Source: an uncultured Chlamydiae bacterium
GTDB taxonomy: Bacteria > Chlamydiota > Chlamydiia > Chlamydiales > Parachlamydiaceae
Direction of reading: 5' to 3'
DNA: 64,000 bases
Assembly (NCBI GenBank): GCA_963754655.1
Contig: CAVWGN010000001.1
Coordinates: forward strand, 1,024,001-1,088,000
Numbering within the stretch: position 1 is the first letter of the stretch; the number at the start of each line of letters is the position of its first letter. The notes under the pieces are model-generated. The model did not search any database, had not been told where the DNA came from, and saw only the letters and a program-made list of their open reading frames with translations. Positions 8,318 through 57,488 of the stretch are shown one piece after another. Position numbers and translations under genes: made by a program.

Positions 8318-10102
8318 ATGCAAATTAACAAATTTTCAGAGACGGTGCAAAACAATTCAAACGAAAACTTGCTGGATAACTTAATTCCTAATGAAGTAGT
8401 AGGAGTGATTTTTGATCAAGTTATCAATCAAAGCCAATCTTTAAGAAGTATTTCTTCTATTTTACTGACTTGTAAAAAATGGAAAAGTATTCTTGAGAGG
8501 AACTTTTGTATTTCATTGGCGCAGGCATTTTTTCAACTTAAAAAGAAGCCTCCCTTCAAGATTACGTTTCCCCAATGTATCATAACTGATCAAAAGAATC
8601 AGCTTACCTCTGCGGAACTTAACTTGATTGATCGAGCCTTCAGTAAACAGCGTATCAGTTTTGAAAGGCTTTTAAATTGTGATACAAATTTATTTCAGCC
8701 GAAGTGTTTATCTCTTTCTCTTTTGAAGTTCTATTTATGGCATCCTGAAGCTTGTAAAGAAAGCGCCAATGAAAATATCCGACAGATAGCCAAAGAGCAA
8801 TTACAGATTTTAAGCTCTCTTACATCAGGCACTGATGATCAAAGACTGAGCGCGATCAAAGACTTTATCGGAAAACTTTACAGTGGTGGTCGAAATTTAA
8901 CATGGCCGCAGGAAAAAATATCTGTTGTCTCTACACTAAAAAATCTTTCCAATTTTAACGATAAAAACATTCTCATGCAAGTGATTCGGTATTTTGGAAG
9001 TGCTGTTTTTGATATACATGAAAGCCTTAAAAAAGATCGAGAAATTGTCTTAGCGGTCATTCAGCAAGATGGCTATGCTCTTCAATATGCAGATGATAGC
9101 CTTAAAAAAGATCGAGAAGTTGTCTTGGCTGCCGTTAAGCAAAATGGTAACGCTCTTCGTTTTGCAGATGAAAATCTTAAAAAAGATCGAGACATTGTGT
9201 TGGTTGCCGTTCAGCAATCTGGCAGAGCTCTTCAATATGCAGATGAAAGCCTTAAAAAAGATCGAGAGATTGTCTGGGTTGCCCTTCAGCAAAATGGCAA
9301 AGCTCTTGGATATGCAGATGAAAGCCTTAAAAAAGATCGAGACATTGTCTTGGTTGCGATTACTCAAGATGGCCAGGCTATTGAATTTGCAGATGAAAGC
9401 CTTAAAAAAGATCGAGAGATTGTCTTGGCTGCCGTTAAGCAAGATGGCTATAATCTTCACTATGCAGATGAAACCTTTAAAAAAGACCGAGAGTTTGTTT
9501 TGGCTGTTGTTCAGCAAAATGGCAATGCTCTTCTCTATGCAGATGAAAGTCTTAAACAAGATCGCGAAATTGTCTTGGCTGCTATTAAGCAAGATGGCAC
9601 TGCTCTTCTTTATGCAAATGAAAGCTTTAAACAAGATCGCGAAATTGTCTTGACTGCTGTTAAGCAAAATGGCTGTGCTCTTGTCTATGCAGTTAAAGGC
9701 CTTAAAAAAGATCGAGAAATTGTCTCAGCTAGCTTACAACAAAATTACGCATTTTTTGAATTTGCAGACGAAAGCCTTAAAAAAGATCGTGCAATTGTTT
9801 TGGTTGCCGTTCAGCAAAGTGGTTATGCTCTTAGATTTGCAGATAAGAGCTTTCAAAAAGATCGAGAGATTGTCTTGGCTGCCGTTAAGCAATATGGCTT
9901 AGCTCTTGAATTTGCAGATGAAAGCCTTAAAAAAGATCAAGAGATTGTTTTGACTGCCGTTAAGCAAGAGGGTATGGCTCTTCAATTTGCAGATGAAAGC
10001 CTTAGAAAAGATCAAGAGATTGTTTTGGCTGCCTTTCAGCAAGATCCAAAAGCTCTTAAATATGCAGATGAAAGTCTAAAAAAGATCGACAGATTGTCTT
10101 GA
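8318..10102 (+). CDS. F-box-like + DUF4116 repeat protein (array 1, copy 1; 14 repeats)
   Basis: LIPNEVVGVIFDQV...SILLTCKKWKSI F-box-like motif; 25-aa repeats KKDREIVLAAVKQNGxALxYADESL. Confidence 0.85.
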   Translation: MQINKFSETVQNNSNENLLDNLIPNEVVGVIFDQVINQSQSLRSISSILLTCKKWKSILERNFCISLAQAFFQLKKKPPFKITFPQCIITDQKNQLTSAELNLIDRAFSKQRISFERLLNCDTNLFQPKCLSLSLLKFYLWHPEACKESANENIRQIAKEQLQILSSLTSGTDDQRLSAIKDFIGKLYSGGRNLTWPQEKISVVSTLKNLSNFNDKNILMQVIRYFGSAVFDIHESLKKDREIVLAVIQQDGYALQYADDSLKKDREVVLAAVKQNGNALRFADENLKKDRDIVLVAVQQSGRALQYADESLKKDREIVWVALQQNGKALGYADESLKKDRDIVLVAITQDGQAIEFADESLKKDREIVLAAVKQDGYNLHYADETFKKDREFVLAVVQQNGNALLYADESLKQDREIVLAAIKQDGTALLYANESFKQDREIVLTAVKQNGCALVYAVKGLKKDREIVSASLQQNYAFFEFADESLKKDRAIVLVAVQQSGYALRFADKSFQKDREIVLAAVKQYGLALEFADESLKKDQEIVLTAVKQEGMALQFADESLRKDQEIVLAAFQQDPKALKYADESLKKIDRLS

Positions 10103-10107
10103 TTATA

Positions 10108-10131
10108 AGGCCCAGCTATCTTGCTGGGCCT
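10108..10131 (+). terminator. Hairpin after each array-1 gene (also ~13182, ~15755, ~18171, ~23543)
   Basis: AGGCCCAGC-TATCTT-GCTGGGCCT inverted repeat just after the stop codon. The U-tract is weak. Confidence 0.55.
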
Positions 10132-10463
10132 ACACTTTGTTCGATAGCCGCAAATAATCCAAGTTTCTCTCAGCGTTTTCTGCGGCTCTGCATTAAACCC
10201 GCCTTATATGTTCTATTTTATAGTTTTTGCCTATAGGGCAATTTTTAAGATTCTTATGGGCTGAGTGAAGAGAGATGAGCTAAAGCTAACGACGTCTTCA
10301 GTCTCCCTTCATTACAGATAGATAGCCAGGTGACTAACCATTAGAAAGCAATTTTTAAATAAATGATCGAGATGAGCAGAGGAGTTAGCCTTGTACAATT
10401 TCTTCCCAGTCCTTAGCTCCACAAAAGTACTCCTACAAGAATTATAAATATTATCTTGACTAG

Positions 10464-11241: not shown

Positions 11242-13176
11242 ATGCAAATTAACAAATTTTCAGAGACAGTGCAAAACAATTCAAACGAAAACTTGCTGGA
11301 CAACTTACTTCCTAATGAAGTAGTAGGAGTGATTTTTGATCAAGTTATCAATCAAAGCCAATCTTTAAGAAGTATTTCTTCTATTTTACTGACTTGTAAA
11401 AAATGGAAAAGTATTCTTGAGGGGAATTTTTGTATTTCATTGGCGCAGGCATTTTTTCAAATTAACAAGAAGCCTATCTTCAAGATTACGTTTCCCCAAT
11501 GTATCATAACTGATCAAAAGAAGCAGCTTACATCTGCGGAACTTAACTTGATTAATCGAGCCTTCAGTAAACAGCGTATCAGTTTTGAAAGGCTTTTAAA
11601 GTGGGATACAAATTTATTTCAGCCGAAGTGTTTATCTCTTTCTCTTTTGAATTTCTATTTATGGAATCCTGAAGCTTGTAAAGAAAGCGCTAATGAAAAT
11701 ATCCGACAGATAGCTAAAGAGCAATCACAGATTTTAGACTCTCTGACATCAGGCACTGATGATCAAAGACTGAATGCGATCAAAGACTTTATTGGAAAAC
11801 TTTACAAGGGTGTTCGAAGTTTAACATGGCAGCAGAAAAAAATATCTGTTGTCTCTACACTAAAAAATCTTCCCAATTTTAACGATAAAAACATTCTCAT
11901 GCAAGTGATTCACTATTTTGGAAGTGCTGTTTTTGATATACATGAAAGCCTTAAAAAAGATCGAGAAATTGTCTTAGCGGTTATTCAGCAAGATGGCGGG
12001 GCTCTTTACGATGCAGATGAAAGCTTTAAAAAAGATCGAGAAGTTGTCTTGGCTGCCGTTAAGCAATATGGTAAAGCTCTTCATTTTGCAGATAAAAGTC
12101 TTAAAAAAGATCGAGACATTGTGTTGGTTGCCTTTCAGCAATATGGCAGAGCTCTTAAATATGCAGATGAAAGCCTTAAAAAAGATCGTGAGATTGTGTT
12201 GGCGGCCCTTCAGCAAGATGGCAAAGCTCTTAAATATGCAGATGAAAGTCTTAAAAAAGATCGAGACATTGTCTTGGCTGCCGTTAAGCAAAATGGCCGG
12301 GCTCTTCAATATGCAGATGAAAGTCTTAAAAAAGATCGAGAGATTATCTGGGCTACTGTCCAGCAAGATGGCTGGGCTCTTCAATATGTAGATGAAAGCC
12401 TTAAAAAAGATCGAGACATTGTCTTGGTGGCCGTTAATAAAAACGGCTATGCTCTTGAATATGCAGATGAAAGCTTTAAAAAAGATCGAGACATTGTCTT
12501 GGCTGCCGTTAAGCAAGATGGCTATGCTCTTAAATTTGCAGATGAAAGCCTTAAAAAAGATCGAGAGTTTGTTTTGTCTGCTGTTAAGCAAAATGGCACT
12601 GCTCTTCAATATGCAGATGAAAGCCTTAAACAAGATCGCGAAATTGTTTTGGCTGCCGTTAAGCAAAATGGCTATGCTCTTCAATTTGTAGATAAAAGCC
12701 TTAAAAAAGATCGAGAGATTGCCTCAGCTAGTTTACAACAAAATGGCTCATTTTTTGAATTGGCAGACGAAAGTTTTAGAAAAGATCGAGAGTTTGTTTT
12801 GGTTATCATTCAGCAAGATGGCACAACTCTTGAATATGCAGATGAAAGCCTTAAAAAAGATCAAGAGGTTGTCTTGGTTGCCGTTAAGCAAAGTGGCTAT
12901 GCTCTTCGATATGCAGATGAAAGCCTTAAAAAAGATCAAGAGGTTGTCTTGGTTGCCGTTAAGCAAAGTGGCATGGCTCTTCAATTTGCAGATGAAAGTC
13001 TAAAAAAAGATCGAGAAATTGTTTTGGCTGCCGTTAAGCAAGAGGGTATGGCTCTTCAGTTTGCAGATGAAAGCCTTAGAAAAGATCAAGAGATTGTTTT
13101 GGCTGCCTTTCAGCAAGATCCAAAAGCTCTTAAATATGCAGATGAAAGTTTAAAAAAGATCGACAGATTGTCTTGA
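11242..13176 (+). CDS. F-box-like + DUF4116 repeat protein (array 1, copy 2; 16 repeats)
   Basis: Same architecture as copy 1, 644 aa. Confidence 0.85.
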   Translation: MQINKFSETVQNNSNENLLDNLLPNEVVGVIFDQVINQSQSLRSISSILLTCKKWKSILEGNFCISLAQAFFQINKKPIFKITFPQCIITDQKKQLTSAELNLINRAFSKQRISFERLLKWDTNLFQPKCLSLSLLNFYLWNPEACKESANENIRQIAKEQSQILDSLTSGTDDQRLNAIKDFIGKLYKGVRSLTWQQKKISVVSTLKNLPNFNDKNILMQVIHYFGSAVFDIHESLKKDREIVLAVIQQDGGALYDADESFKKDREVVLAAVKQYGKALHFADKSLKKDRDIVLVAFQQYGRALKYADESLKKDREIVLAALQQDGKALKYADESLKKDRDIVLAAVKQNGRALQYADESLKKDREIIWATVQQDGWALQYVDESLKKDRDIVLVAVNKNGYALEYADESFKKDRDIVLAAVKQDGYALKFADESLKKDREFVLSAVKQNGTALQYADESLKQDREIVLAAVKQNGYALQFVDKSLKKDREIASASLQQNGSFFELADESFRKDREFVLVIIQQDGTTLEYADESLKKDQEVVLVAVKQSGYALRYADESLKKDQEVVLVAVKQSGMALQFADESLKKDREIVLAAVKQEGMALQFADESLRKDQEIVLAAFQQDPKALKYADESLKKIDRLS

Positions 13177-13319
13177 TTATAAGGCCCAGCTATCTTGCTG
13201 GGCCTACACTTTGTTCGATAGCCGCAAGTAATCCAAGTTTGTCTCGGCGTTTGCTCAGCGTTTCTCGGCTTTGCGTTAAACCCTCCTTATGTTCAGTCCT
13301 ATTAGTTTTTGCCTATTAG

Positions 13320-13889: not shown

Positions 13890-15749
13890 ATGCAAATTAA
13901 CACGTTTTATTCAGAAACGTTGCAAAACAATTCAAACGAAAACTTGCTAGACAACTTACTTCCTAATGAAGTAGTAGGAGTGATTTTTGATCAAGTTATC
14001 AATCAAAGCAAATGTTTAAGAAGTATTTCTTCTATTTTACTGACTTGTAAAAAATGGAAAAGCATTCTTGAAGGGAACTTTTGTGTTTCATTGGCACAGG
14101 CATTTTTTCAACTTAACAAGAAGCCTCCCTCCAAGATTACGTTTCCCCACTGTATCATAACTGATCAAAAGAAGCTTACCTCTGCGGAACTTAACTTGAT
14201 TGATCGAGCCTTCCGTAAACAGTCTATCAAGTTTGAAAGCTTGTTAAGGCAGGATACAAATTTATTTCAGCCGAAGTGTTTATCTCTTTCTCTTTTGAAT
14301 TTCTATACATGGGATCCTGAAGCTTGTAAAGAGAGCGCCAATGAAAATATCCGACAGATAGCTAAAGAGCAATTACAGATTTTAGACTCTCTGACATCAG
14401 GCACTGATGATCAAAGACTGAACGCGATCAAAGACTTTATCGGAAAACTTTACAGTGGGGGTCGAAATTCAACATGGCCGCAGGAAAAAATATCTATTAT
14501 CTCTACACTAAAAAATCTTCCCAATTTTAACGATAAAAACATTCTCATGCAAGTGATTCGGTATTTTGGAAGTGCTGTTTTTGATATACATGAAAGCCTT
14601 AAAAAAGATCGAGAAATTGTTTTAGCGGTCATTCAGCAAGATGGCGAGACTCTTTTCTATGCGGATGAAAGTCTTAAAAAAGATCGAGAAGTTGTCTTGG
14701 CTGCCGTTAAGCAAAATGGTAACGCTCTTCATTTTGCAGATAAAAATCTTAAAAAAGATCGAGACATTGTGTTGGTTGCCATTCGGCAAGACGGCAGAGC
14801 TCTTAAATATGCAGATAAAAGTTTTAAAAAAGATCGAGAGATTGTCTGGATTGCCATTCAGCAAGATGGCACGGCTCTTAAATATGCAGATAATAGCCTT
14901 AAACAAGATCAAGAGACTGTCTTGGCTGCGGTTAAGCAAGATGGCTATGCTCTTAAATATGCAGATGAAAGCTTTAAAAAAGATCGAGAGATTGTTTTGA
15001 TTGCTGTTCAGCAAAATGGCTGGGCTCTTCAATATGCAAATGGAAGCCTTATAAGAGATCAAGAGATTGTGTTGGCTGCCGTTCAGCAAAATGGCTATAC
15101 CTTTAATTATGCATGTGTAAGCTTTAAAATAGATCGAGAGTTTGTTTTGGCTGCTGTTCAGCAAAGTGGCACTGCTCTTCTCTATACAGCTGAAAGCCTT
15201 AAACAAGATCGCGAAATTGTCTTGGCTGCTGTTAAGCAAGATGGTTACGCTCTTCAATTTGCAGATAAAAGCCTTAAAAAAGATCGAGAGATTGTCTTAG
15301 CTAGTTTACAACAAAATTACGCATTTTTTGAATTTGCAGACGAAAGCCTTAGAAAAGATCGAGAGTTTGTTTTGGCTATCATTCAGCAAGATGGCATAAC
15401 TCTTGAATATGCAGATGAAAGCCTTAAAAAAGATCGAGATATGGTCTTGGTTGCTGTTCAGCAAAATGGCTATGCTCTTCACTATGCAGATAAAAGCCTT
15501 CAAAAAGATCGAGAGGTTGTCTTGGCTGCCGTTAAGCAAAATGGCTATGCTCTTAGATTTGCAGATGAGAGCCTTCAAAAAGATCGAGAGATTGTTTTGG
15601 CTGCCGTTAAGCAAGAGGGTATGGCTCTTGAATTTGCAGATGAAAGCCTTAGAAAAGATCAAGAGATTGTTTTGGCTGCGTTTCAGCAAAATGCAAAGGC
15701 TCTTAAATATGCAGATAAAAGTCTAAAAAAGATCGACAGATTGTCTTGA
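13890..15749 (+). CDS. F-box-like + DUF4116 repeat protein (array 1, copy 3; 15 repeats)
   Basis: Same architecture, 619 aa. Confidence 0.85.
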   Translation: MQINTFYSETLQNNSNENLLDNLLPNEVVGVIFDQVINQSKCLRSISSILLTCKKWKSILEGNFCVSLAQAFFQLNKKPPSKITFPHCIITDQKKLTSAELNLIDRAFRKQSIKFESLLRQDTNLFQPKCLSLSLLNFYTWDPEACKESANENIRQIAKEQLQILDSLTSGTDDQRLNAIKDFIGKLYSGGRNSTWPQEKISIISTLKNLPNFNDKNILMQVIRYFGSAVFDIHESLKKDREIVLAVIQQDGETLFYADESLKKDREVVLAAVKQNGNALHFADKNLKKDRDIVLVAIRQDGRALKYADKSFKKDREIVWIAIQQDGTALKYADNSLKQDQETVLAAVKQDGYALKYADESFKKDREIVLIAVQQNGWALQYANGSLIRDQEIVLAAVQQNGYTFNYACVSFKIDREFVLAAVQQSGTALLYTAESLKQDREIVLAAVKQDGYALQFADKSLKKDREIVLASLQQNYAFFEFADESLRKDREFVLAIIQQDGITLEYADESLKKDRDMVLVAVQQNGYALHYADKSLQKDREVVLAAVKQNGYALRFADESLQKDREIVLAAVKQEGMALEFADESLRKDQEIVLAAFQQNAKALKYADKSLKKIDRLS

Positions 15750-16454: not shown

Positions 16455-18165
16455 ATGCAAATTAACAAATTTTCAGAGACAGTGCAAAACACTTCAAACG
16501 AAAACTTGCTGGACAACTTAATTCCTAATGAAGTAGTAGGAGTGATTTTTGATCAAGTTATCAATCAAAGCCAATCTTTAAGAAGTATTTCTTCTATTTT
16601 ACTGACTTGTAAAAAATGGAAAAGTATTCTTGAGGGGAACTTTTGTATTTCATTGGCGCAGGCATTTTCTCAACTTAAAAAGAAGCCTCCCTTCAAGATT
16701 ACGTTTCCCCAATGTATCATAACTGATCAAAAGAAGCAGCTTACATCTGCGGAACTTAATTTGATTGATCGAGCCTTCCGTAAACAGCTTATCAGGTTTG
16801 AAAGCTTGTTAAGGTAGGATATAAATTTATTTCATCCGAAGGTGTTTATCTCTTTCTCTTTTGAATTTCTATTTATGGGATCCTGAAGTTTGCAAAGAAA
16901 GCGCCAATGAAAATATCCGACAGATAGCTAAAGAGCAATTACAGATTTTAGACTCTCTGACATCAGGCACTGATGATCAAAGACTGAGCGCGATCAAAGA
17001 CTTTATTGGAAAACTTTACAGTGGTGGTCGAAATTTAACATGGCCGCAGAAAAAAACATCTGTTATCTCTACACTAAAAAATCTTCCCAATTTTAACGAT
17101 AAAAACATTCTCATGCAAGTGATTCACTATTTTAGAAGTGCTGTTTTTGATATACATGAAAGCCTTAAAAAAGATCGAGAAATTGTTTTAGCGGTCATTC
17201 AGCAAGATGGCGAGACTCTTTTCTATGCGGATGAAAGCCTTAAAAAAGATCGAGAAGTTGTCTTGGCTGCCGTTAAGCAAAATGGTAACGCTCTTCATTT
17301 TGCAGATAAAGATCTTAAGAAAGATCGAGACATTGTGTTGGTTGCCGTTCAGCAAGACGGCAGAGCTCTTAAATATGCAGATGAAAGTTTTAAAAAAGAT
17401 CGAGAGATTGTCTGGATTGCCCTTCAGCAAGATGGCACGGCTCTTAAATATGCAGATGATAGCCTTAAACAAGATCGAGAGACTGTCTTGGCTGCGGTTA
17501 AGCAAGATGGCTATGCTCTTAAATATGCAGATGAAAGCTTTAAAAAAGATCGAGAGATTGTTTTGATTACTGTTCAGCAAAATGGCGGCGCTCTTGACTA
17601 TGCAAATGAAAGCCTTAAAAAAGATCGAGAGATTGTCTTGGCTGCCGTTCAGCAAAAGGGCTATGCTCTTCTCTATGCAGATGAAAGCCTTACAACAGAT
17701 CGAGAGTTTTTTTTGGCTGCTGTTCAGCAAAATGGCACTGCTCTTAAATATGCAGATGAAAGCCTTAAACAAGATCGCGAAATTGTTTTGGCTGCTGTTA
17801 AGAAAAATGGCTATGCTCTTGAATATGCAGATGAAAGCCTTAAAAAAAATCGAGATATGGTCTTGTTTGCTGTTCAGCAAAATGGCTATGCTCTTCACTA
17901 TGCAGATAAAAGCCTTCAAAAAGATCGAAAGGTTGTCTTGGCTGCCGTTAAGCAAAATGGCTATGCTCTTAGATTTGCAGATGAGAGCCTTCAAAAAGAT
18001 CGAGAGATTGTTTTGGCTGCCGTTAAGCAAGAGGGCATGGCTCTTGAATTTGCAGATGAAAGCCTTAGAAAAGATCAAGAGATTGTTTTGGCTGCCTTTC
18101 AGCAAGATCCAAAAGCTCTTAAATATGCAGATGAAAGTTTAAAAAAGATTGACAGATTGTCCTGA
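16455..18165 (+). pseudogene. F-box-like + DUF4116 repeat pseudogene (array 1, copy 4; 13 repeats)
   Basis: Premature TAG at 16815-16817 (TGG in copy 5) and a +1 insertion near 16841. Confidence 0.85.
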
Positions 18166-47483: not shown

Positions 47484-49256
47484 TTAAATCTGCAAATTGA
47501 AAAAACCAGCCATCTTACTGAAAATGGTAGCCCAGACAAAATCTTGATCTTTTTTAAAGCTTTCATCTGCATATTGGAAAGCCAAGCTATCTTGCTGAAC
47601 GGCAGCCAAGACAATGTCTCGATCTTTTTTAAAGCTTGCATCTGCATATTTAAGGGCAGTACCATGTTGCTGAACAGCAGCCAAGGTAATGTCTCGATCT
47701 TTTTTAAGGCTTTCATGTGCATATTGAAGAGCTATCGCCTTTTGCTTAACGGCAGCCAGGACAATGTCTCGATCTTGTTTAAAGCTTGCATATGCATATT
47801 GAAGAGCGCGGCCATCTTGTTGAACGGCAGCCAAGACAATGTCTCGCTCTTTTTTAAGATTTGCGTCTGCAAATTCAAGATCCCTACCATTTTGCTGAAC
47901 GGCCGCCAAGACAATGTCTCGATCCTTTTTAAGGCTTTCATCTGCATATTGAAGCGACCCTTTCATTGTTTGAATGCTAGCCAAGACAATCTCTCGATCT
48001 TTTTTAAAGCTTGCATCTGCATATTGAAGAGCCCAGCCATTTTGCTTAACGGCAGCCAAAACAATCTTTCGATCTTGTTTAAGACTTTTGCCTGCACTTG
48101 CAAGAGCCCTGCCATCTTGCTGAACGGCAGCCAAGACAATGTCCCGATCTTGTTTTAATCTTTCAACAGCATATTCAAGAGCCATGCCATCTTGCTTAAC
48201 GGCAGCTAAGACAATGTCTTGATCTTGTTTAAAGCTTTCATCTGCATATTCAAGAGCTAAGCCATTTTGCTGAACAGCAGTCAAGACAATGTCTCGATCT
48301 TGTTTAAAGCTTGCATCTGCAAAGTAAAGAGCTTCCGCCCTTTGCTTAACGGCAGACAAGACAATGCTTCGATCTTTTTTAAGGTTTTCATCTGCAAAGA
48401 GAAGCGCCGAGCCATTTTGCTGAACGGCAACCAATACAATGTCTCGATCTTGTCTAAAACTTTCATCTACATATTGAAGAGCGTATCCATTATGCTGAAC
48501 AGTAGCCAAGACAATGTCTCGATCTTTTTTAAGGCTTTCATCTATATTAAAAACAGAATCTCCAAAACAGCGAGCAACTTGCATAAAAATTTTTTTATCG
48601 TTAAAATCGGGAAATTTTTTAAGTGTGGAGATGACCAAGTCTGTTGCCAGCTCCCATGTTTGATCTGGTTGACCACCTAGGTAAAGTTTTGCAATAAAAT
48701 CATTTTTGATTACCATTAATCTTTGTTCGTCAGTGCCCCAGGCAAGAGAGTTTAAAATAGACAACTGCTCTTCAGCCACTTGCTGGATATTCTTATTTGC
48801 GCTGGTTTTGCAATGTTGAGGATCCCATGAATAGCGATGCAAAAGAGAAAGAAATAAACTATCAGAGCAAAATAACTGTGATTTAACCATTAACAATTTT
48901 TTAAAACTCTCCCCATAGCAGCCATGTTGGACTCGATCAATCAACTTAAGTTCTTGAGAAGTAAAAGACTTCTTTTGTTTTGCGATACATTCTTCAGGAA
49001 AATTAATAGGGGATTGAGGGCTCTTTTTAAGTTGAAAAAGAGTCCGCGCCAAGGAGATGCAAGGATTCTTTTCAAAAACTCTTTTCCATCTTGTACAAGT
49101 GAGCAAAGTAGAAGAAATATCACTTAAAAGTGGACTTTTTTGATTAATAACCCGATCAAAAAAAATTTCCAATACCTCATCAGGAAGGATGGTGTTTAAG
49201 CAAGCTTCATTTGAAGGAGCTGACCTTGCTTGTGAATTAACAAGAGTAAGTTGCAT
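47484..49256 (-). CDS. F-box-like + DUF4116 repeat protein (array 2; 13 repeats)
   Basis: 590 aa, same architecture. Confidence 0.85.
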   Translation of the reverse strand: MQLTLVNSQARSAPSNEACLNTILPDEVLEIFFDRVINQKSPLLSDISSTLLTCTRWKRVFEKNPCISLARTLFQLKKSPQSPINFPEECIAKQKKSFTSQELKLIDRVQHGCYGESFKKLLMVKSQLFCSDSLFLSLLHRYSWDPQHCKTSANKNIQQVAEEQLSILNSLAWGTDEQRLMVIKNDFIAKLYLGGQPDQTWELATDLVISTLKKFPDFNDKKIFMQVARCFGDSVFNIDESLKKDRDIVLATVQHNGYALQYVDESFRQDRDIVLVAVQQNGSALLFADENLKKDRSIVLSAVKQRAEALYFADASFKQDRDIVLTAVQQNGLALEYADESFKQDQDIVLAAVKQDGMALEYAVERLKQDRDIVLAAVQQDGRALASAGKSLKQDRKIVLAAVKQNGWALQYADASFKKDREIVLASIQTMKGSLQYADESLKKDRDIVLAAVQQNGRDLEFADANLKKERDIVLAAVQQDGRALQYAYASFKQDRDIVLAAVKQKAIALQYAHESLKKDRDITLAAVQQHGTALKYADASFKKDRDIVLAAVQQDSLAFQYADESFKKDQDFVWATIFSKMAGFFNLQI

Positions 49257-49724: not shown

Positions 49725-49813
49725 AATTTTATAATATCTAATATTATAGTTCTACAAATATAATATCTTGATTGCAATTATGTTTTTTTTTGATATAGAT
49801 GAAAGCCATAACG

Positions 49814-50167: not shown

Positions 50168-52165
50168 TTAGATCTGTAAATTGAGAAGCCCAGCCATCTT
50201 ACTGAAAACAGTAGCCAAGAAAAACTCTTGATCTTTTTTAAAAGTTTCATCTGCATATTGAAGAGCCATGCTATCTTGCTGAACGGCAGCCAAGACAATC
50301 TTTCGATCTTTCCTAAGGCTTTCATCCGCATATTGAAGAGCATTGCCATTTTGCTGAACGGCAGCCAAGACAATGTCTTGATCTTGTTTAAAGCTTGCAT
50401 CTACATATTCAAGAGCACATCCATTTTGCTGAACAGCAGCCAAGACAATGTCTCTATCTTGTTTAAAACTTTCATCTACACAGTAAAGAGCATAGCCATT
50501 TTGCTTAACGGCTGCCAAGACAATGTCTCGATCTTGTTGAAGGCTTGCAGATGCATATTTAAGAGATCTGCTATCTTGCTGAACGGCAGTCAAGACAATT
50601 TCTCGATCTTGTTGAAGGCTTGCATCTGCATATTTAAGAGCCCTGCCATTTTGCTTAACGGCTGCCAAGACAATCTCTTGATTTTTTTTAAGATTAGCGT
50701 CTGCAAATGCAAGCTCCCTACCATCTTGCTGAACGGCAGCCAAGACAATCTCTCGATCTTGTTTAAAGCTTGCATCTGCATATTCAAGAGCACATCCATT
50801 TTGCTGAACGGCCGCCAAGACAATCTCTCGATCTTGTTTAAAGCTTGCATCTGCATATTCAAGAGCACATCCATTTTGCTGAACGGCCGCCAAAACAATC
50901 TTTCGATTTTGTTTAAGAATTTTGCCCGCACTTGCAAGAGCCTTACCATTTTGCTGAACAGCAGCCAAGACAATCTCTCGATCTTGTTTAAGGCTTTCAT
51001 CTGCATATTTAAGGGAGGTGCCATCTTCCTGAACAGCAGCCAAGACAATGTCTCGATTTTCTTGAAGGCTTCCATCTGCAAATTGAAGAGATCTACCATC
51101 TTGCTGAACGGCAGCCAAGACAATGTCTCGATCTTTTTTAAAGCTTGCATCCGCATCTTCAAGAGCATACCCATATCGCTGAATGGCAGCCAAGAAAATG
51201 TCTCGATCCTGTTTAAAGCTTGCATCTGCGTGTTTAAGAGCATCGCCTCTTTGTTGAATGGCAGCCAAGACAATTTCTCGATCTTTTTTAAGGCTTTCAT
51301 CTGCATATTTAAGAGCCCAGCCATTTTCCTGAACGGCAACCAAGACAATATCTCGATCTTGCTTAAATCTTGCATCCGCGTATGCAAGAGCACATCCATT
51401 TTGCTGAACAGTAGCCAAGACAATGTCTCGATCTTTTTTAAGGCTTTCATCGATATTAAAAACAGAATGTCCAAAACAGTGAGCAACTTGCAGAAAAATT
51501 TTTTTATTGTTAAAAGCGGGAAATTTTTTAAGTGTGGAGATGACCAAGTCTGTTGCCAGCGGCCATGTTTTATGTTTTTTAATATCCAGGTAAAGTTTTG
51601 AGATAAAATCCTTTTCAATCACCATTAATCTTTGGTCGTCAGTGCCCCAAGCAAGAGAGGCTAAAATAGACAACTGCCCTTCAGCCAATTGCTGGATATT
51701 GTCATTGGCGCTGGTTTTGCAATCTTGAGGATCCCATGAATAGCGATTCAAAAGAGAAAGAAATAAACTATTAGAGCAAAATAACTGTGATTTAATCATT
51801 AACAATTTTCTAAAACTTTCCCCATAGCAGCCTTGTTGGGCTCGATCGATCAAATTAAGTTCCTGAGAAGTAAAAGATTTATTTTGTTTATCGATATATC
51901 CTTGAGGAGGATTAATAGGGGATTGAGGATTCTTTTTAAGTTGAAAAAGAGTTTGCGCCAAGGAAATGCAAGGATTGTTTTCAAAAATTCTTTTCCATCT
52001 TGTACAACTGAGTAAAATAGAAAAAATATCACTTAAAAGAGGCCTTTTTTGATTGACAACCCGATCAAAAAAAATTGCTAATACCTCATCAGGAAGTAAA
52101 GTATTTAAACAAACTTCATTTGAAGTAGTTGGCATTGCTTGCGAATTAACGAGGGTAGGTTGCAT
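50168..52165 (-). CDS. F-box-like + DUF4116 repeat protein (array 2; 16 repeats)
   Basis: 665 aa; contains a recent near-exact internal repeat duplication (QNGCALEYADASFKQDREIVLAAVQ twice). Confidence 0.85.
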   Translation of the reverse strand: MQPTLVNSQAMPTTSNEVCLNTLLPDEVLAIFFDRVVNQKRPLLSDIFSILLSCTRWKRIFENNPCISLAQTLFQLKKNPQSPINPPQGYIDKQNKSFTSQELNLIDRAQQGCYGESFRKLLMIKSQLFCSNSLFLSLLNRYSWDPQDCKTSANDNIQQLAEGQLSILASLAWGTDDQRLMVIEKDFISKLYLDIKKHKTWPLATDLVISTLKKFPAFNNKKIFLQVAHCFGHSVFNIDESLKKDRDIVLATVQQNGCALAYADARFKQDRDIVLVAVQENGWALKYADESLKKDREIVLAAIQQRGDALKHADASFKQDRDIFLAAIQRYGYALEDADASFKKDRDIVLAAVQQDGRSLQFADGSLQENRDIVLAAVQEDGTSLKYADESLKQDREIVLAAVQQNGKALASAGKILKQNRKIVLAAVQQNGCALEYADASFKQDREIVLAAVQQNGCALEYADASFKQDREIVLAAVQQDGRELAFADANLKKNQEIVLAAVKQNGRALKYADASLQQDREIVLTAVQQDSRSLKYASASLQQDRDIVLAAVKQNGYALYCVDESFKQDRDIVLAAVQQNGCALEYVDASFKQDQDIVLAAVQQNGNALQYADESLRKDRKIVLAAVQQDSMALQYADETFKKDQEFFLATVFSKMAGLLNLQI

Positions 52166-52752: not shown

Positions 52753-54603
52753 TTAGATCTGCAAATTGAAAAGCCCAGCCATCTTACTGAAAACGTTAGC
52801 CAAGAAAAACTCTTCATCTTTTCTAAAGCTTTCATCTGCATATTCAAGAGCATAACTATCTTGATTAACGGCAGCTAAGACAATTTCTCGATCTTTTTTA
52901 AAGCTTTCATCTGCAAACTCAAGAGCTCTGCCATCTTGCTTAACGGCAGTCAAGACAATATCTCGATCTTTTTTAAGGCTTTCATCTGCATATTCAAGAG
53001 CATTGCCATCTTGCTGAATGGCAGCCAAGACAATCTCTCGATCCTTTTTAAGGCTTTCATCTGCAAATTGAAGAGTACGGCCATTTTTCTGAACGGCAAC
53101 CAAGACAATGTCTCGATCTTTTGTAAGGCTTTTATCTACAGATCTAAGAGCTCTACCATCTTGCTGAACGGCAGCCAAGACAATCTCTTGATCTTTTTTA
53201 AGATTTGCGTTTGCAAATGCAAGCTCTACACCATATTGCTGAACGGCCGCCAAGACAATGTCTCGATCCTTTGTAAGGCTTTCATCTGCATGTTGAAGCG
53301 CTCCATGCACTGTCTGAACGCCAGCCAAGACAATGTCTCGATCTTTGGTAAAGCTTTCATCTGCATATTGAAGAGCGCTGCCTCTTTGCTGAACAGCAGC
53401 CAAAACAATCTCTCGATTTTGTTTAAGACTTGCGCTTGCAGTTCCAAGAGCCATACCATTTTGCTTAACGGCCACCAAAAAAATGTCTCGATCTTGTTTA
53501 AAGCTTTCATCTGCATAGTGAAGAGCTTGGCCATCTTGCTGAACAGCAGCCAAGGTAATCTCTCGATCTTTTTTAAGGCTTTCATCTGCAAATTGAAGAG
53601 CTCTACCATATTGCTTAACGGCAGCCAAGAAAATGTCTCGATCTTGTTTAAAGCTTGCATCTGCATAGTAAAGAGCCTCGCCACTTCGTTGAACGGCAGC
53701 CAAGACAATGTCTCGATCCTTTTTAAGGCTTTCATCGGCAAATTGAAGAGCTCTACCATTTTGCTGAACGGCAATCAAAACAATGTCTCGATCTTTTTTA
53801 AAGCTTGCATCTGCATATTCAAGAGCACATCCATTTTGCTGAACAGTAGCCAAGACAAATTCTCGATCTCTTTTAAGGTTTTCATCTATATCAAAAATAC
53901 AATGTCCAAAACAGCGAGCAATTTGCATAAGTTTCTTTTTATCGTTAAAATGGGGAAATTTTTTTAATGTAGAGATGATTGATTCTTTTGCTAGCTGCCA
54001 TATTTTATCATCTTGACCACCTAGGTAAAGGTTTGCGATAAAATCATTTTTGATCACCATTAATTTTTGGTCGTCAGTGCTCCATATAAGAGAATTTAAA
54101 ATAAATAATTGCCCTTTAGCCACTTGCTGGATGTTCTTATTGGCGCTGGTTTTGCAATCTTGAGGATCCCATGAATAGTGATTCAAAAGAGAAAGAAATA
54201 AACTGTTAGCGCAAAATAAAGGTGATTTAATCATTAATAATTTTTTAAAACTTTCCCCATAGGAGCCTTGTTTGGCTCGGTCAATCAACTTAAGTTCTTG
54301 AGATGTAAAAGACTTCTTTTGTTCAGTTGCGATACATTCTTGGGCAGAATCAATAGGGGATTGAGGACTCTTTTTAAATTTAAAAAGAGTCTGCGCCAAT
54401 GAGATGCAAGGATTTTTTTCAAAAACTCTTTTCCATCTTGTACAAGTGAGCAAAATAGAAGAAATATCACCTAAAAGGGGCCTTTTTTGATTAACAACTA
54501 GATCAAAAAAATATTCTAGTAATTCATCGGGAAGTAACGTGTTTAAGCAAGCTTCATTAGAAGTGATTGGCATTGCTTGTGAATTAACGAGTGTAAGTTG
54601 CAT
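52753..54603 (-). CDS. F-box-like + DUF4116 repeat protein (array 2; 14 repeats)
   Basis: Start set at ATG 54603 (MQLTL) by comparison with paralogs. Confidence 0.85.
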   Translation of the reverse strand: MQLTLVNSQAMPITSNEACLNTLLPDELLEYFFDLVVNQKRPLLGDISSILLTCTRWKRVFEKNPCISLAQTLFKFKKSPQSPIDSAQECIATEQKKSFTSQELKLIDRAKQGSYGESFKKLLMIKSPLFCANSLFLSLLNHYSWDPQDCKTSANKNIQQVAKGQLFILNSLIWSTDDQKLMVIKNDFIANLYLGGQDDKIWQLAKESIISTLKKFPHFNDKKKLMQIARCFGHCIFDIDENLKRDREFVLATVQQNGCALEYADASFKKDRDIVLIAVQQNGRALQFADESLKKDRDIVLAAVQRSGEALYYADASFKQDRDIFLAAVKQYGRALQFADESLKKDREITLAAVQQDGQALHYADESFKQDRDIFLVAVKQNGMALGTASASLKQNREIVLAAVQQRGSALQYADESFTKDRDIVLAGVQTVHGALQHADESLTKDRDIVLAAVQQYGVELAFANANLKKDQEIVLAAVQQDGRALRSVDKSLTKDRDIVLVAVQKNGRTLQFADESLKKDREIVLAAIQQDGNALEYADESLKKDRDIVLTAVKQDGRALEFADESFKKDREIVLAAVNQDSYALEYADESFRKDEEFFLANVFSKMAGLFNLQI

Positions 54604-55009: not shown

Positions 55010-55240
55010 GAGCCTGAAGAGCTCTCTCTGAATATTAGACATTTTTTATTAACCGTCCCTAAAATGATTGCGGAGCATGTACCATTTAATAGGCATAGCC
55101 CTACAATCGTTATAGAAGAAGGTCTTCCAAAAATGTTCAATGTTCATGGAGCCTGAAGGCTCTAAAGTGAAATAGCCCAGACCAGCGGCCTGGGAAAAAA
55201 ACACCCCATAGCCTAGTCTGAAAGACTACAAGAGAAATTG
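55010..55240. repeat. REP-like element (related copies ~44690-44790, ~44890-44925, ~49900-50010, ~52590-52685)
   Basis: GAGCCTGAAGGCTC, AGCCCAGACCAGCGGCCTGGG, AGTCTGAAAGACT. Shares its internal spacer with 10620-10735. Confidence 0.75.
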
Positions 55241-55484
55241 TGGAATAGTCATTTGCAAGCATTCTTAATTCCTTATCCTATTCAGTAACAAAACACACTG
55301 GCTATTTATACAATCACTAATGATTTGGATCTATCCTTTTGATAGGGCAAGTTTTGTATTGCTACAACGCCTTCTTTTTTATTTCTTTGAAAGCACGTTT
55401 AAAATTTAACACTATCTCCCTCAAATCTGATACTCCGAGTTTGGAATGAAGAATGACAAATCAAAGAAGTTAAGAAAACGGGAT

Positions 55485-57488
55485 TCATTTGATTTGAAAA
55501 TTTAAATCTGCAAATTGAAAAAACTCAACCATTTTACTGAAAACCGTAGCCGAGACAAATTCTTGATCTTTTTTAAAGCTTTCATCTACATATTGAAGAG
55601 CACAGCTATCTTGATTAACGGCAGCCAAGACAATCTCTCGATCTTTTTTAAGGCTTTCATCTGCAAATTGAAAAGCGCGACCTTTTTGCTTAACGGCAAC
55701 TAAGACAATCTCTCGATCTTTTTTAAGGCTTTCATCTGCATATTCAAGAGCATAGCCATCTTGATTAACCGCAGCCAAGATAATGTCTCGATCTTGTTTA
55801 AAGCTTTCATCTACATAGTAAAGAGCTAAGCCATTTTGCTGAATGGCAGCTAAGACAAATTCTCGATCTTTTTTAAGGCTTTCATCTGCATAGTGAAGAG
55901 CCCCCGCACTTTGATTAACGGCAGCCAAGACAAATTCTCGATCTTTTTTAAAGCTTTCATCTGCATATTTAAGAGCTTCGTAAGTTTTCTGAACGGCAGT
56001 TAAGACAATTTCTCGATCTTTTTTAAGGCTTTCATCTACATATTGAAGAACTCTGCCAGCTTGCTTAACAGCAGCTAAGATAATCTCTCGATTTTTTTTA
56101 AAACTTTTATCTGCAAATTGAAGGGCAAGACCATCTTGCTCAACGGCAGCCAAGAGACTCTCACGATCTTTTTTAAAGCTTTCACCTGCATATTCAAGAG
56201 CCCTGCCATTTTGCTTAACGGCAGCCAAGACAATCTCTCGATCTTTTTTAAAGCTTTCATCTACATAGAGAAGAGCTTCGCCATTTTGCTTAACGGCAGC
56301 CAAGACAATCTCTCGATCTTGTTTAAAGCTTGCATCTGCATATTTAAGAGCCCATCCAATTTGCTTACCGGTAGCTAAGACAATCTCTCGATCTTCTTTC
56401 AAGCTTTCATCTGCATATTCAAGAGCTAAGCCATTTTGCTGAACAGCAGCTAAGACAATCTCACGATCTTTTTTCAAGCTTTCATCTGCATATTCAAGAG
56501 CTAAGCCATTTTGTTGAACAGCAGCTAAGACAATCTCAAGATCTTTTTTAAAGCTTTCATCTGCATAGTGAAGAGCCCTGCCGTCTTGCTGAACGGCAGC
56601 CAAGACAATTTCTCGATCTTTTTCAAGACTTTTATCCGCATAGAGAAGAGCACAGCCATATTGCTGAACGGTAGCCAAGACAACCTCTCGATCCTTTTTA
56701 AGACTTTTATCTGCATATTTAAAAGCTGCGCCATTTTGCTTAACAGCAGCCAAGACAATGTCTTGATCTTTTTTAAGGTTTGCATCTATATCAAAAACAC
56801 AATGTCCAAAACAACGAGCAACTTGTATCAAATTTTTTTTATCGTTAAAATTGGGAAATTTTTTAAAGGTAGAGATGATCGATTCTCGTGCCAGCAGCCA
56901 TATTTGAGCTCGAGCACCTAGATAAAGTTTTGCGATAAAATCATTTTTGATCATTAGGAGTCTTTGGTCTTCAGTGCCCCATATAAGAGAGTTTAAAATA
57001 GACAATTGCCCTTCAGCCACTTGCTGGATGTTCTTATTGGCGCTGGTTTTGCAATCTTGAAGATCCCATCCATAGTGATCCAAAAGAGAAAGAAATAAAC
57101 TGTTAGCGCAAAATAAAGGTGATTGAACCATTAACAAATTTCTAAAACTTCTTTGTTGGGCTCGATCAATCAACTTAAGTTCTTGAGATGTAAAAGACTT
57201 CTTTTGTTCAGTTGTGATACATTCTCGGGCAGAATGAATAGGGGATTGAGGACTCTTTTTAAGTTGAAAAAAAGTCTGCGCCAAGGAGATACAAGGATTC
57301 TTCTCAAGAACTCTTTTCCATCTTGTACAAGTGAGTAAAATAGAAGAAATATCACCCAAAGGTGGCCTTTTTTGATTAACAACCCGATCAAAAAAAATTT
57401 CTAATACTTCATCGGGAAGTAAATTGTTTAAGCAAGCTTCGTTTGAAGGAGGTGGCATTGCTTGTGAATTAACGAGCGTAAGTTGCAT
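55485..57488 (-). CDS. F-box-like + DUF4116 repeat protein (array 2; 16 repeats)
   Basis: 667 aa, same architecture. Confidence 0.85.
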   Translation of the reverse strand: MQLTLVNSQAMPPPSNEACLNNLLPDEVLEIFFDRVVNQKRPPLGDISSILLTCTRWKRVLEKNPCISLAQTFFQLKKSPQSPIHSARECITTEQKKSFTSQELKLIDRAQQRSFRNLLMVQSPLFCANSLFLSLLDHYGWDLQDCKTSANKNIQQVAEGQLSILNSLIWGTEDQRLLMIKNDFIAKLYLGARAQIWLLARESIISTFKKFPNFNDKKNLIQVARCFGHCVFDIDANLKKDQDIVLAAVKQNGAAFKYADKSLKKDREVVLATVQQYGCALLYADKSLEKDREIVLAAVQQDGRALHYADESFKKDLEIVLAAVQQNGLALEYADESLKKDREIVLAAVQQNGLALEYADESLKEDREIVLATGKQIGWALKYADASFKQDREIVLAAVKQNGEALLYVDESFKKDREIVLAAVKQNGRALEYAGESFKKDRESLLAAVEQDGLALQFADKSFKKNREIILAAVKQAGRVLQYVDESLKKDREIVLTAVQKTYEALKYADESFKKDREFVLAAVNQSAGALHYADESLKKDREFVLAAIQQNGLALYYVDESFKQDRDIILAAVNQDGYALEYADESLKKDREIVLVAVKQKGRAFQFADESLKKDREIVLAAVNQDSCALQYVDESFKKDQEFVSATVFSKMVEFFQFADLNFQIK

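Follow-up and report, generated by a model that had tools for sequence, protein, structure and literature searches.

A tandemly amplified family of DUF4116-repeat proteins with a probable, divergent F-box in a Parachlamydiaceae genome

AnkB of Legionella pneumophila, a bacterial effector that combines an F-box with ankyrin repeats, is injected into amoebae and uses host Skp1. The family that we describe here shares with AnkB the fusion of a bacterial F-box(-like) domain to helical repeats, but differs in that AnkB is a single gene without a large repertoire, carries two to three ankyrin repeats and depends on a type IV system for delivery. Within the Parachlamydiaceae themselves, the families NEX1a and NEX2 of Neochlamydia and PEX1 of Protochlamydia comprise dozens to more than 100 paralogs, which lie in tandem arrays and undergo birth and death, according to the part of Domman 2014 (PMC4209131) drawn on here. 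The same part reports functional type III signals, established in a heterologous assay, for chlamydial families that join F-box or BTB domains to LRR or TPR repeats, and no positive selection at the whole-gene level in the NEX/PEX families (Domman 2014, PMC4209131).

We analysed a 64,000-nt stretch of DNA (hereafter the window) that contains two arrays, A and B, of a family with much the same layout. As in NEX1a, NEX2 and PEX1, an N-terminal domain related to eukaryotic ubiquitin ligases (F-box, BTB) is followed by a conserved, unassigned linker and C-terminal repeats, and close relatives have sharply different copy numbers. The repeats, however, are all-helical DUF4116 units of 25 aa, whereas those of NEX1a, NEX2 and PEX1 are LRR or TPR; a per-site count singles out three repeat positions in the window family, where the NEX/PEX analysis was made on whole genes; and type III signals, assayed in the NEX/PEX-type families, we infer here from the proteins' N-termini (comparisons with the same part of PMC4209131). 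In the literature library searched, only four papers name DUF4116, and chlamydiae are the subject of none of them.

The family in the window and across the genome

All ten ORFs lie where the preliminary description had placed full-length paralogs, and the remnant that it reported is present too (Table 1). Its count of ten full-length copies has to be lowered, in that nine are open from an RBS-preceded ATG through to the stop and g4 is broken: according to tblastn and the sequence, the ORF at 16861-18165 constitutes only the 3' part of g4, and the N-terminal part (16455-16841) lies in another frame; an in-frame stop and a shift of frame occur at around 16.81-16.84 kb. For g9, whose ORF spans 52753-54609 on the minus strand, the ATG at 54603, which has an RBS-like AGG upstream, is the likely start rather than the GTG at 54609. 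Both birth and death have left signs in the window: one copy is broken, another is present as a remnant, and a transposase sits within the A array.

Table 1. Positions of family members, g1 domains and other features in the window.
Feature	Coordinates	Strand	Description	Evidence
g1	8318..10102	+	A array; intact, 594 aa, 14 repeats	DUF4116 E 8.5e-154; F-box-like 12.1 bits, residues 23-61
g1 residues 1-21	8318..8380	+	polar N-terminus without hydrophobic signal-peptide core; candidate type III secretion signal	pLDDT < 50, modelled disordered
g1 residues 22-69	8381..8524	+	F-box-like three-helix motif	hhalign, model helices, Atlas look-alike
g1 residues 70-212	8525..8953	+	conserved helical linker domain	conserved over 81 paralogs; pLDDT 64-92
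g1 residues 213-237	8954..9028	+	degenerate N-cap repeat	weak DUF4116 match, residues 215-240
g1 residues 238-587	9029..10078	+	14 DUF4116 repeats, 25 aa (75 bp) each, exact register	
g2	11242..13176	+	A array; intact, 644 aa, 16 repeats	PF12937 match 17.8 bits, window 11305-11418
g3	13890..15749	+	A array; intact, 619 aa, 15 repeats	
g4	16455..18165	+	A array; broken paralog, 13 repeats	tblastn and sequence
Transposase	19382..20536	-	inside A array, between g4 and g5; rve integrase core and HTH	Pfam rve_3 1.5e-14, HTH_32 9.3e-13, rve 3.6e-9
g5	21603..23537	+	A array; intact, 644 aa, 16 repeats	
Remnant	about 44409..44660	-	three repeats and start of B-type C-terminal cap; no N-domain, stops upstream	tblastn, translation
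g6	45124..47043	+	B array; intact, 639 aa, 15 repeats and cap	DUF4116 E 1.4e-214
g7	47484..49256	-	B array; intact, 590 aa	
g8	50168..52165	-	B array; intact, 665 aa; two identical adjacent repeats	
g9	52753..54603	-	B array; intact	
g10	55485..57488	-	B array; intact, 667 aa; two identical adjacent repeats	DUF4116 E 5.8e-189

Across the 3.16-Mb Parachlamydiaceae genome the family numbers 94 ORFs with at least three repeats, which are spread over 21 loci (the biggest arrays have 18, 16 and 12 genes) and occupy 141.8 kb, or 4.5% of the genome. The N-domain motif is present in 86 of these ORFs; among 81 paralogs N-domain identity is at least 49% (median 57%). In the window copies the conserved N-domain spans ~237 aa and is followed by 13-17 gap-free repeats. 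This domain is almost confined to the genome studied, with 17 representatives among 1.84 billion proteins, and copy number stands at 168 or more scored matches here, compared with 0, 11 and 8 in three congeneric genomes. Among the genomes searched, only this one carries the fusion of the F-box-like N-domain to DUF4116 in ~90 copies. The best reading is of a lineage-specific, tandemly amplified family of ~90 members in an amoeba-associated member of the Parachlamydiaceae. The organism is an environmental chlamydia, in line with the preliminary description, and its closest named records are MAGs of the Parachlamydiaceae.

The N-terminal motif is probably a divergent F-box, as the preliminary description had proposed, although each window copy scores below the Pfam cut-off for F-box-like (12.1-17.8 versus 24.3 bits). 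Elsewhere in the genome, three paralogs reach the curated PF12937 cut-off (26.1, 25.7 and 23.8 bits, the last 24.4 with neighbours) and one divergent family member reaches that of PF00646 (20.8 versus 20.5 bits). When matches were compared with the ORF list by coordinates, 22 of the 36 genome-wide PF12937 matches proved to belong to ORFs of the family, always at the same N-terminal site, and among 32 N-domains scanned, 20 gave a sub-threshold F-box-like match there at E <= 0.1 and six an F-box match. Aligning the N-domains against ten Pfam-passing F-box segments with hhalign gave a probability of 86.4% (E 4.7e-6) over residues 22-69. Atlas, a language-model look-alike search, returned an F-box cluster at 0.92 as the top match for residues 15-110, and all of its ten best named matches belong to the F-box clan. 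In the g1 model this region forms helices at residues 25-37, 42-51 and 53-60, at a pLDDT of only 50-78. The ~140-aa linker domain that follows matched no Pfam family. Contrary to the preliminary description, which called the N-terminal ~18 aa non-conserved, the first ~20 residues show conservation inside each array and follow a loose pattern family-wide. The genome also encodes SctV and two secretins.

Variable positions of the DUF4116 repeat

Pfam assigns the repeats to DUF4116 in each of the four window proteins scanned (E 8.5e-154 to 1.4e-214), in agreement with their initial identification. Leaving aside the B array's degenerate cap units at the C-terminus, we extracted 148 repeats from the window; every one is 25 aa long and in register, with zero indels. 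The repeat length given earlier thus holds, while the range of 13-16 repeats per copy becomes 13-17. Two residues, x1 and x2 (positions 16 and 19), had been singled out as variable, and they do have the two highest entropies (3.68 bits with 19 different residues, and 2.92 bits with 13), but a third site, position 14, had been overlooked (2.32 bits, 13 residues); the remaining 22 positions range from 0.28 to 1.48 bits. That x2 takes "almost any residue" was an overstatement, since 99 of the 148 residues there are Q, E or K. The x1/x2 string reported for copy 1 matches the extracted repeats exactly, and the claim that strings differ from gene to gene is borne out by 93 distinct strings among 94 ORFs.

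Entropy likewise peaks at positions 16, 19 and 14 in a genome-wide set of 781 ungapped repeats (of 1023 HMM matches, 242 partial or gapped ones being left out), over which the scaffold is strongly conserved. Position 16 tolerates all 20 residues there, whether small or large (G to W), acidic or basic (D to R), and is enriched in W (14.5-fold), Y (5.3-fold), M (4.8-fold) and R (2.6-fold). DUF4116 (PF13475) is a repeat family that also occurs in protists, giant viruses, phages and other bacteria, and the same positions vary in unrelated DUF4116 arrays of other genomes with other fused domains. Because they do, positions 14, 16 and 19 would represent a generic variable surface of the DUF4116 repeat; hypervariability goes with this type of repeat, comparable to LRR, ankyrin and armadillo repeats, and is not peculiar to the window family. 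In other genomes of the order, the fusion partners of DUF4116 arrays include, besides an F-box, a PARP catalytic domain, DUF294/SidM_N nucleotidyltransferase-like domains and hydrophobic N-termini, a variety that fits a portable targeting module.

AlphaFold models g1 residues 200-594 as an alpha-solenoid with three helices per repeat (pLDDT 93.2), into which the helices of the N-cap repeat run on. Model helices occupy repeat positions 4-13, 15-20 and 23-1. Helix b carries positions 16 and 19 in an i, i+3 spacing, and the residues that flank them, A17, L18 and A21, are conserved. Helix periodicity and residue tolerance suggest that positions 14, 16 and 19, which lie where the chain turns into this short second helix and along a single face of it, are surface-exposed together; acceptance of all 20 residues at position 16 would agree with a solvent-exposed site. 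Structure comparison, including Foldseek, found no close relative of the modelled solenoid among solved structures. The best, though weak, match is an armadillo protein (6sa7_B, VIA Z 6.3, rmsd 7.4 over 200 residues), at a Z under the level that parts real relatives from generic helical repeats; Foldseek rows include importin-alpha and designed armadillo repeat proteins (dArmRP). These proteins have three helices per repeat in a right-handed-looking alpha-solenoid, as does the rod model, but their repeat is about 42 aa long compared with 25 aa, and the window proteins scanned gave no Pfam match to the Arm family. An armadillo protein binds a peptide in extended form, with some two peptide residues contacted by each repeat, which by analogy makes armadillo peptide binding the nearest known counterpart of a modular read-out by the rod.

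To quantify selection we counted omega on a minimum-spanning tree with bootstrap intervals, in a count that ignores recombination among repeats. With a pooled synonymous rate, intervals lie wholly above 1 only at positions 14, 16 and 19 (1.90, 3.10 and 2.29 in the window, against 0.68 for the 22 scaffold positions; 1.60, 2.52 and 2.08 genome-wide, against 0.61). Recombination among repeats clearly occurs, given identical neighbouring repeats in g8 and g10. Measured against the synonymous rate of their own codons, with single-nucleotide changes only, positions 14 (3.1-3.4) and 19 (1.9-2.8) again exceed 1, showing a surplus of amino-acid-changing substitutions at both. The excess at position 16 holds only against the pooled rate: its own codon has raised synonymous change (0.15 versus 0.086, single-step changes), which yields a site omega of 0.65, or about 1.2 against the scaffold rate without multi-nucleotide changes. 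The variable sites named at the outset therefore fare differently in the dN/dS check, x2 exceeding 1 throughout and x1 only with the pooled rate. Since scaffold omega is 0.61-0.68, the g2 and g5 N-domains differ at 24 non-synonymous versus 6 synonymous codons, and pseudogenes occur, relaxed constraint or drift must be counted as a genuine part of the picture.

Possible function of the rod and alternative readings

We consider it reasonably probable that this is a DUF4116-based form of the known chlamydial expansions of F-box and repeat effectors, encoding host ubiquitin-ligase adaptors with a variable target-binding rod. In this scenario, the short, polar, disordered N-terminus would act as a type III secretion signal and the divergent F-box would dock on host Skp1, giving entry into the host SCF ubiquitin ligase. 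Beyond the ~140-aa conserved helical linker, an alpha-solenoid of 13-17 DUF4116 repeats, each of three short helices, would expose positions 14, 16 and 19 as a continuous variable stripe along the rod. The stripe may be a protein- or peptide-binding surface that picks a host protein, which would then be brought to the ligase or merely sequestered. Paralogs differ mainly along the stripe, and the genome would therefore encode a repertoire of receptors for different targets, presumably built up as genes duplicate in tandem, gain and lose repeats and diversify, and pruned by pseudogenisation in birth-and-death evolution.

Such an expansion might instead be largely non-adaptive, a product of genes duplicating in tandem and drifting within a population both small and isolated, with positions 14, 16 and 19 simply the least constrained surface sites and most copies redundant or decaying. 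Besides the scaffold omega, the broken copy, remnant and transposase would fit this, as would the loss of the N-domain motif from 8 of 94 ORFs, the sharp copy-number difference within the genus and a site-specific omega below 1 at position 16; for the sister families, the part of Domman 2014 (PMC4209131) cited above argues for birth-and-death evolution and drift. We nonetheless think it unlikely, given that omega exceeds 1 at positions 14 and 19 with both denominators, that most ORFs keep the N-domain motif and nine of ten window copies are open, and that the scaffold is so strongly conserved; W, Y and R at x1 would also be an unexpected outcome of drift at unconstrained sites in a 39% G+C genome. 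Another possibility is that the N-terminal motif merely resembles an F-box and that the proteins are no SCF adaptors at all, but binding-only scaffolds, decoys or inhibitors of host proteins, perhaps anchored elsewhere, or intrabacterial proteins. The sub-threshold scores of the window copies, a linker without a recognised relative and the existence of relatives whose DUF4116 rods lack any F-box all speak for this, yet four independent lines of evidence place an F-box on one and the same stretch of 48 residues, a further family within the order fuses a canonical F-box to a DUF4116 array (22.3 bits versus a cut-off of 20.5), and the design agrees with the chlamydial F-box effector families covered in that part of PMC4209131, so that we regard it as quite unlikely.

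The adaptor reading also has to be set against the analogy originally drawn with TALE and PPR proteins, in which the x1/x2 pair of each repeat would read a DNA or RNA base or another polymer unit and the succession of pairs would spell out the target. The rod does share with these proteins a perfectly regular helical solenoid in which variation is mostly limited to a few (here two to three) fixed positions per repeat, the string is near-unique to each gene, and positions 16 and 19 are weakly coupled (mutual information 0.36 versus 0.25 shuffled, z = 6.2). TALE and PPR proteins, however, use a small residue code and differ in repeat length and topology (PPR10 matches the rod with only Z 4.4 and rmsd 18.5), whereas there is no small alphabet here: the 781 repeats contain 156 different x1/x2 pairs, of which the top 4 account for 20% and the top 20 for 52%. 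At x1, the prevailing residues are W, Y, L, R and M, and the enriched W, Y, M and R are characteristic of interfaces between proteins. The repeat regions have an acidic pI (5.0-6.1 for the window copies, genome-wide median 5.26), the same sites vary in unrelated arrays, and relatives fuse the same rod to F-box, PARP-like and nucleotidyltransferase-like domains in the manner of protein-targeting modules. The analogy is thus not supported, a polymer reader being highly improbable, and the family has the look of an extensive set of protein binders and not of a TALE-like code. As to the coupling between positions 16 and 19, the shared ancestry of the repeats alone could yield it.

Family members in the window and across the genome

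The family is very large, and the window contains only a small share of it. A six-frame scan of the genome (3.12 Mb plus a 35-kb contig, 38.8% G+C) recovers 94 open reading frames (ORFs) with at least three DUF4116 repeats, spread over 21 loci and occupying 141.8 kb, or 4.5% of the genome; the biggest arrays comprise 18, 16 and 12 genes. The ~240-aa N-domains that precede the repeats are at least 49% identical among 81 members, with a median of 57%.

Within the window, the preliminary description is confirmed as an observation, in its gene positions, its repeats and its variable positions, and the ten ORFs it claimed are all present where it put them. Of its ten full-length copies nine are intact, and the remnant stands, but the ORF at 16861-18165 is the downstream piece of a broken gene. 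All intact copies have an ATG start with an AGG/GGA-type ribosome-binding site ahead, and those of array A share conserved upstream DNA. Several ORFs of 180-457 aa run antisense or out of frame over the repeat regions (9050-9667, 11974-12684 and 17188-18105 on the minus strand, 50228-51601 on the plus strand, and similar ones); these look like by-products of stop-poor 75-bp repeat DNA rather than genes. The genes between the arrays (24-44 kb) have ordinary housekeeping and transport functions; three ORFs there, at 32745-34994 (+), 41160-42347 (-) and 42344-43651 (-) (749, 395 and 435 aa), match no Pfam family at E <= 1e-5.

Family members and associated features (positions in the window unless a locus in a related genome is named)
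Feature	Position	Strand	Description
Array A	8318-23537	+	paralogs g1-g5
g1	8318-10102	+	intact copy
g2	11242-13176	+	intact copy
g4	16455-16841; 16861-18165	+	broken copy: N-terminal 130 residues, then repeat part in a different frame; in-frame stop and frame change near 16.81-16.84 kb
Transposase	19382-20536	-	rve integrase core and HTH domains; within array A, directly downstream of g4
g5	21603-23537	+	intact copy
Remnant	~44409-44660	-	three repeats and the beginning of a B-type C-terminal cap retained
Array B	45124-57488		paralogs g6-g10
g8	50168-52165	-	intact copy
g10	55485-57488	-	intact copy
Giant DUF4116 protein, genome G009	L058:931-6399	-	1823 aa; N-terminal PARP-type catalytic domain, C-terminal DUF4116 rod
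Giant DUF4116 protein, genome G009	L059:266-4579	-	1438 aa; DUF294/SidM_N nucleotidyltransferase-like domains and TPR, C-terminal DUF4116 rod

Outside this genome the N-domain is almost absent. Of the 17 matches that a word-seeded search found among 5.8 billion proteins, 16 lie on this genome's 3,123,268-bp contig; HMMER, run exhaustively over 1.84 billion representatives, likewise found 17, several being fragments. Among the matches listed for 40 related genomes, the rows covering the N-domain part of the profile all come from this genome, and when the N-domain alignment was run against named genome contigs, none of the 28 pattern matches was confirmed. DUF4116 repeats have a patchy distribution but occur widely in the order, being present in 17 of 40 other genomes; four genomes show large independent expansions, yet the three that share this genome's genus have only 0, 11 and 8 matches. 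The closest named records to a housekeeping gene of this genome are Parachlamydiaceae metagenome-assembled genomes, at no more than 74% identity. Among the matches listed in a search of sequencing runs there is no RNA run and one soil-metagenome DNA run, containing a fraction of 0.16 of the words.

The repeat and its variable positions

All four window proteins that were scanned match Pfam DUF4116 (PF13475, gathering score 24.9 bits) at 499-694 bits, with E values from 8.5e-154 to 1.4e-214. The 148 repeats extracted from the window are tandem and helical, each exactly 25 aa long and in register, with not a single indel. An AlphaFold model of g1 residues 200-594, built from 20 paralogous rows, is all-helical with a mean pLDDT of 93.2; each modelled repeat comprises three helices, of ten residues (positions 4-13), six residues (15-20) and a single turn (beginning at 23 and ending at position 1 of the following repeat), and the N-domain closes with a degenerate capping repeat, made up of its last 25 residues. 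Structure searches return generic alpha-solenoids alone (designed helical repeats, armadillo, ankyrin, HEAT) and hence no close solved relative: the three proteins that Foldseek matches at E <= 0.001 are designed helical repeats, none above a TM of 0.29, and the best Z from VIA wide is 6.3. Because Z <= 6.3 falls short of what would mark helical repeats as relatives, the assignment stops at alpha-solenoid, as which DUF4116 has been predicted in earlier modelling work (PMC8078820). The armadillo repeat likewise has three helices, but over ~42 residues rather than 25, and the scanned window proteins have no Pfam Arm match.

Variation is concentrated at the two residues singled out in the preliminary description, x1 (repeat position 16) and x2 (position 19), whose string in g1 it had read exactly. 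Over the 148 window repeats, Shannon entropy is highest at position 16 (3.68 bits, 19 different residues), followed by position 19 (2.92 bits, 13 residues) and by position 14 (2.32 bits, 13 residues), a third variable position that had been overlooked; the remaining 22 positions lie between 0.28 and 1.48 bits. The same three stand out genome-wide, where a repeat HMM yields 1023 matches, of which we retained the 781 that are full-length and ungapped: position 16 has 3.79 bits, position 19 has 2.94 and position 14 has 2.75, and no other exceeds 1.66. Position 16 tolerates all twenty residues in this larger set. The claim that x2 takes almost any residue was overstated, as Q, E and K account for 99 of the 148 window repeats. 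That every gene has its own x1/x2 string very nearly holds at the scale of the genome, with 93 different strings among the 94 ORFs.

In the model, positions 16 and 19 are related as i and i+3 on the short helix, adjoining the conserved A17, L18 and A21, and position 14 sits in the turn directly before that helix. We infer that all three are exposed and, given the translational symmetry of a solenoid, would form one stripe along the rod.

To estimate selection we built a minimum spanning tree of the unique 75-nt repeat units and tallied Nei-Gojobori changes on its edges. With the pooled synonymous rate of the 22 scaffold positions as denominator, the bootstrap interval for omega lies wholly above 1 at positions 14, 16 and 19 alone (1.90, 3.10 and 2.29 in the window; 1.60, 2.52 and 2.08 in the genome), compared with 0.68 and 0.61 for the scaffold. 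When single-nucleotide codon differences alone are considered, omega is above 1 at positions 14 and 19 also with each position's own synonymous rate as reference. At position 16 it is above 1 against the pooled rate only: the site omega from single-nucleotide differences is 0.65, because synonymous change at the same codon is raised too, and the excess there is due to multi-nucleotide replacements, which account for 165 of 760 edges. Note that the path-averaged Nei-Gojobori dS, inflated at position 16 by six-fold degenerate L/R codons and multi-nucleotide changes, was discounted there and changes were recounted as single steps. A positional comparison of g2 with g5, rough in that the central repeats are out of register, shows non-synonymous change in 18 of 48 variable-position codons and in 60 of 352 others (Fisher p = 0.0017).

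Diversifying selection is thus likely at positions 14 and 19 and possible at position 16. We put it no higher because the spanning-tree count ignores recombination, which is evident here: two identical 25-aa repeats stand side by side in g8, and again two in g10, which shows directly that units were recently duplicated within a gene. The N-domains of g2 and g5 (coordinates given as 8318-9028 and 21603-22313) differ by 24 non-synonymous and 6 synonymous codon changes, an excess that suggests relaxed constraint, or adaptation, beyond the repeats too.

The N-terminal motif and related effector families

The preliminary description took the N-terminus to carry an F-box-like motif. The case is better made from the family as a whole than from the window copies alone, which would not pass: they score 12.1-17.8 bits against the F-box-like model (PF12937), below its gathering score of 24.3. 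Three paralogs with N-domains at least 49% identical do reach that cut-off (26.1, 25.7 and, with neighbours, 24.4 bits), and one divergent member passes PF00646 (20.8 bits, gathering score 20.5). Of the 36 PF12937 matches in the genome, 22 lie in ORFs of the family, always at the corresponding N-terminal site (coordinates counted against the ORF list), and 20 of 32 N-domains have F-box-like matches at E <= 0.1. The profile comparison agrees: hhalign aligns the N-domain alignment, at residues 22-69, with ten Pfam-passing F-box segments (nine belonging to further proteins of this genome and one to a different family in the order) at a probability of 86.4% and E 4.7e-6, the first loop being ~6 residues longer in the family motif. 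A language-model look-alike search with residues 15-110 returned F-box clusters exclusively (best 0.92).

The motif itself, (L/I)PxE(V/I)L..IF ... LLTC(K/T)(K/R)W, with its LLTCKKW-type end, is found in 86 of the 94 ORFs, and has the three-helix, ~45-residue form of an F-box, which starts with L-P-x-E and ends with C/S-K-x-W; in the g1 N-domain model the helices span residues 25-37, 42-51 and 53-60, at moderate confidence (pLDDT 73 overall, 50-78 in the F-box part). Fold searches, which took the whole 240-aa N-domain model as query and so say little about the 48-residue motif within it, gave weak generic helical matches: Foldseek against pdb had none at E <= 0.001, and VIA wide reached a best Z of 5.7 over 74 residues with no F-box chain listed. 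Searched against all PDB chain sequences, the N-domain profile has four matches at E <= 10, none an F-box protein, the best (E 0.12) being an uncharacterised protein. On balance, profile and model evidence together make it probable that the motif is a divergent F-box. A second tandem array in the same genome (G000:C1 ~2072209-2083658; seven ORFs of 463-471 aa, with PF00646 at the same N-terminal place at 19.5-23.1 bits) is a different F-box family.

Parachlamydiaceae are already known for families in which an F-box or BTB domain is joined to LRR or TPR repeats (Domman et al. 2014, PMC4209131). That paper describes 27-138 members per family, tandem arrays, birth-and-death evolution, functional type III signals in a heterologous assay, and a global dN/dS of 0.29-0.63 without evidence of positive selection. 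The present family is best read as a DUF4116-based addition to this known class of chlamydial effector expansions. It resembles the NEX/PEX type in being a large, lineage-specific tandem paralog family with birth and death (94 ORFs at 21 loci, a broken copy, a remnant, and copy numbers that contrast within the genus) and in pairing an N-terminal E3-related domain, here the F-box-like motif, with C-terminal interaction repeats, here the DUF4116 solenoid rather than LRR or TPR. Indirect evidence for a possible type III secretion signal lies in the N-terminus, polar in sequence and disordered in the model, and in the SctV and secretins that the genome encodes. Literature searches (with supplements and subscription journals outside their reach) found nothing on chlamydiae for DUF4116/PF13475, and nothing closer than the Domman families for chlamydial F-box repeat proteins.

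DUF4116 occupies the place that LRR, TPR or ankyrin repeats take in known bacterial F-box effectors, which suggests that the rod may be the substrate-recognition part of a ligase adaptor. The ubiquitin-ligase adaptor proposed at the outset is plausible and partly supported. It would add a third repeat type to ubiquitin-system mimicry in amoeba symbionts, in a family that makes up 4.5% of a genome.

Base code or binding surface

What would such a rod recognise? The preliminary description envisaged a programmable code akin to that of TALE or PPR proteins. The DUF4116 family does share with those readers a concentration of variation at a few fixed positions per repeat (14, 16 and 19). However, it lacks their small recurrent alphabet of pairs: the 781 repeats contain 156 different x1/x2 pairs, the top four making up 20%, and 368 different 14/16/19 triplets. 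It also lacks a basic, nucleic-acid-binding rod, the repeat region of the window proteins being acidic (pI 5.0-6.1, net charge -2 to -11, taken as a proxy for the surface). Compared with family composition, W is 14.5-fold, Y 5.3-fold, M 4.8-fold and R 2.6-fold overrepresented at x1. Such a bias is characteristic of hot spots in protein interfaces.

Other genomes of the order also speak against such a code, which is not supported. There, DUF4116 rods occur in fusion with a canonical F-box, a PARP-type catalytic domain, DUF294/SidM_N nucleotidyltransferase-like domains or hydrophobic N-termini. Among 257 repeats sampled from these genomes, variability peaks at position 16 in four of the five genomes with at least 15 repeats. 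From these fusions, the recurrence of the same variable position and the residue statistics, the stripe appears to be a general property of the repeat, as in LRR, ankyrin and armadillo repeats, and DUF4116 a portable targeting module rather than a TALE- or PPR-like base code.

A bolder reading, which we offer as a long shot, models the grip of the rod on designed armadillo repeat proteins. DUF4116 would then be a natural modular peptide reader, in which each 25-aa repeat, by its positions 14, 16 and 19, holds an extended host peptide at one or two of the peptide's side chains, and the ~90 F-box-linked paralogs would be a diversifying repertoire that sends many host proteins to a ubiquitin ligase. 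If true, this would be the first function for DUF4116, a widespread repeat family (protists, giant viruses, phages, bacteria) without known function or solved structure. 

The family as a whole yields a concrete, testable hypothesis on DUF4116 function and a map of the repeat's putative specificity positions. The ~1000 repeats of this one genome are a large natural data set that shows which three positions carry the diversity. With three helices in 25 aa the repeat would rank among the most compact alpha-solenoid scaffolds, and with its variable positions mapped it may interest binder engineering.

In two related genomes, G004 (loci L053, L068 and L069) and G020 (L056 and L057), independent DUF4116 expansions carry conserved hydrophobic N-terminal segments in place of the F-box; these proteins are possibly membrane-anchored and, at a guess, sit at the inclusion membrane.
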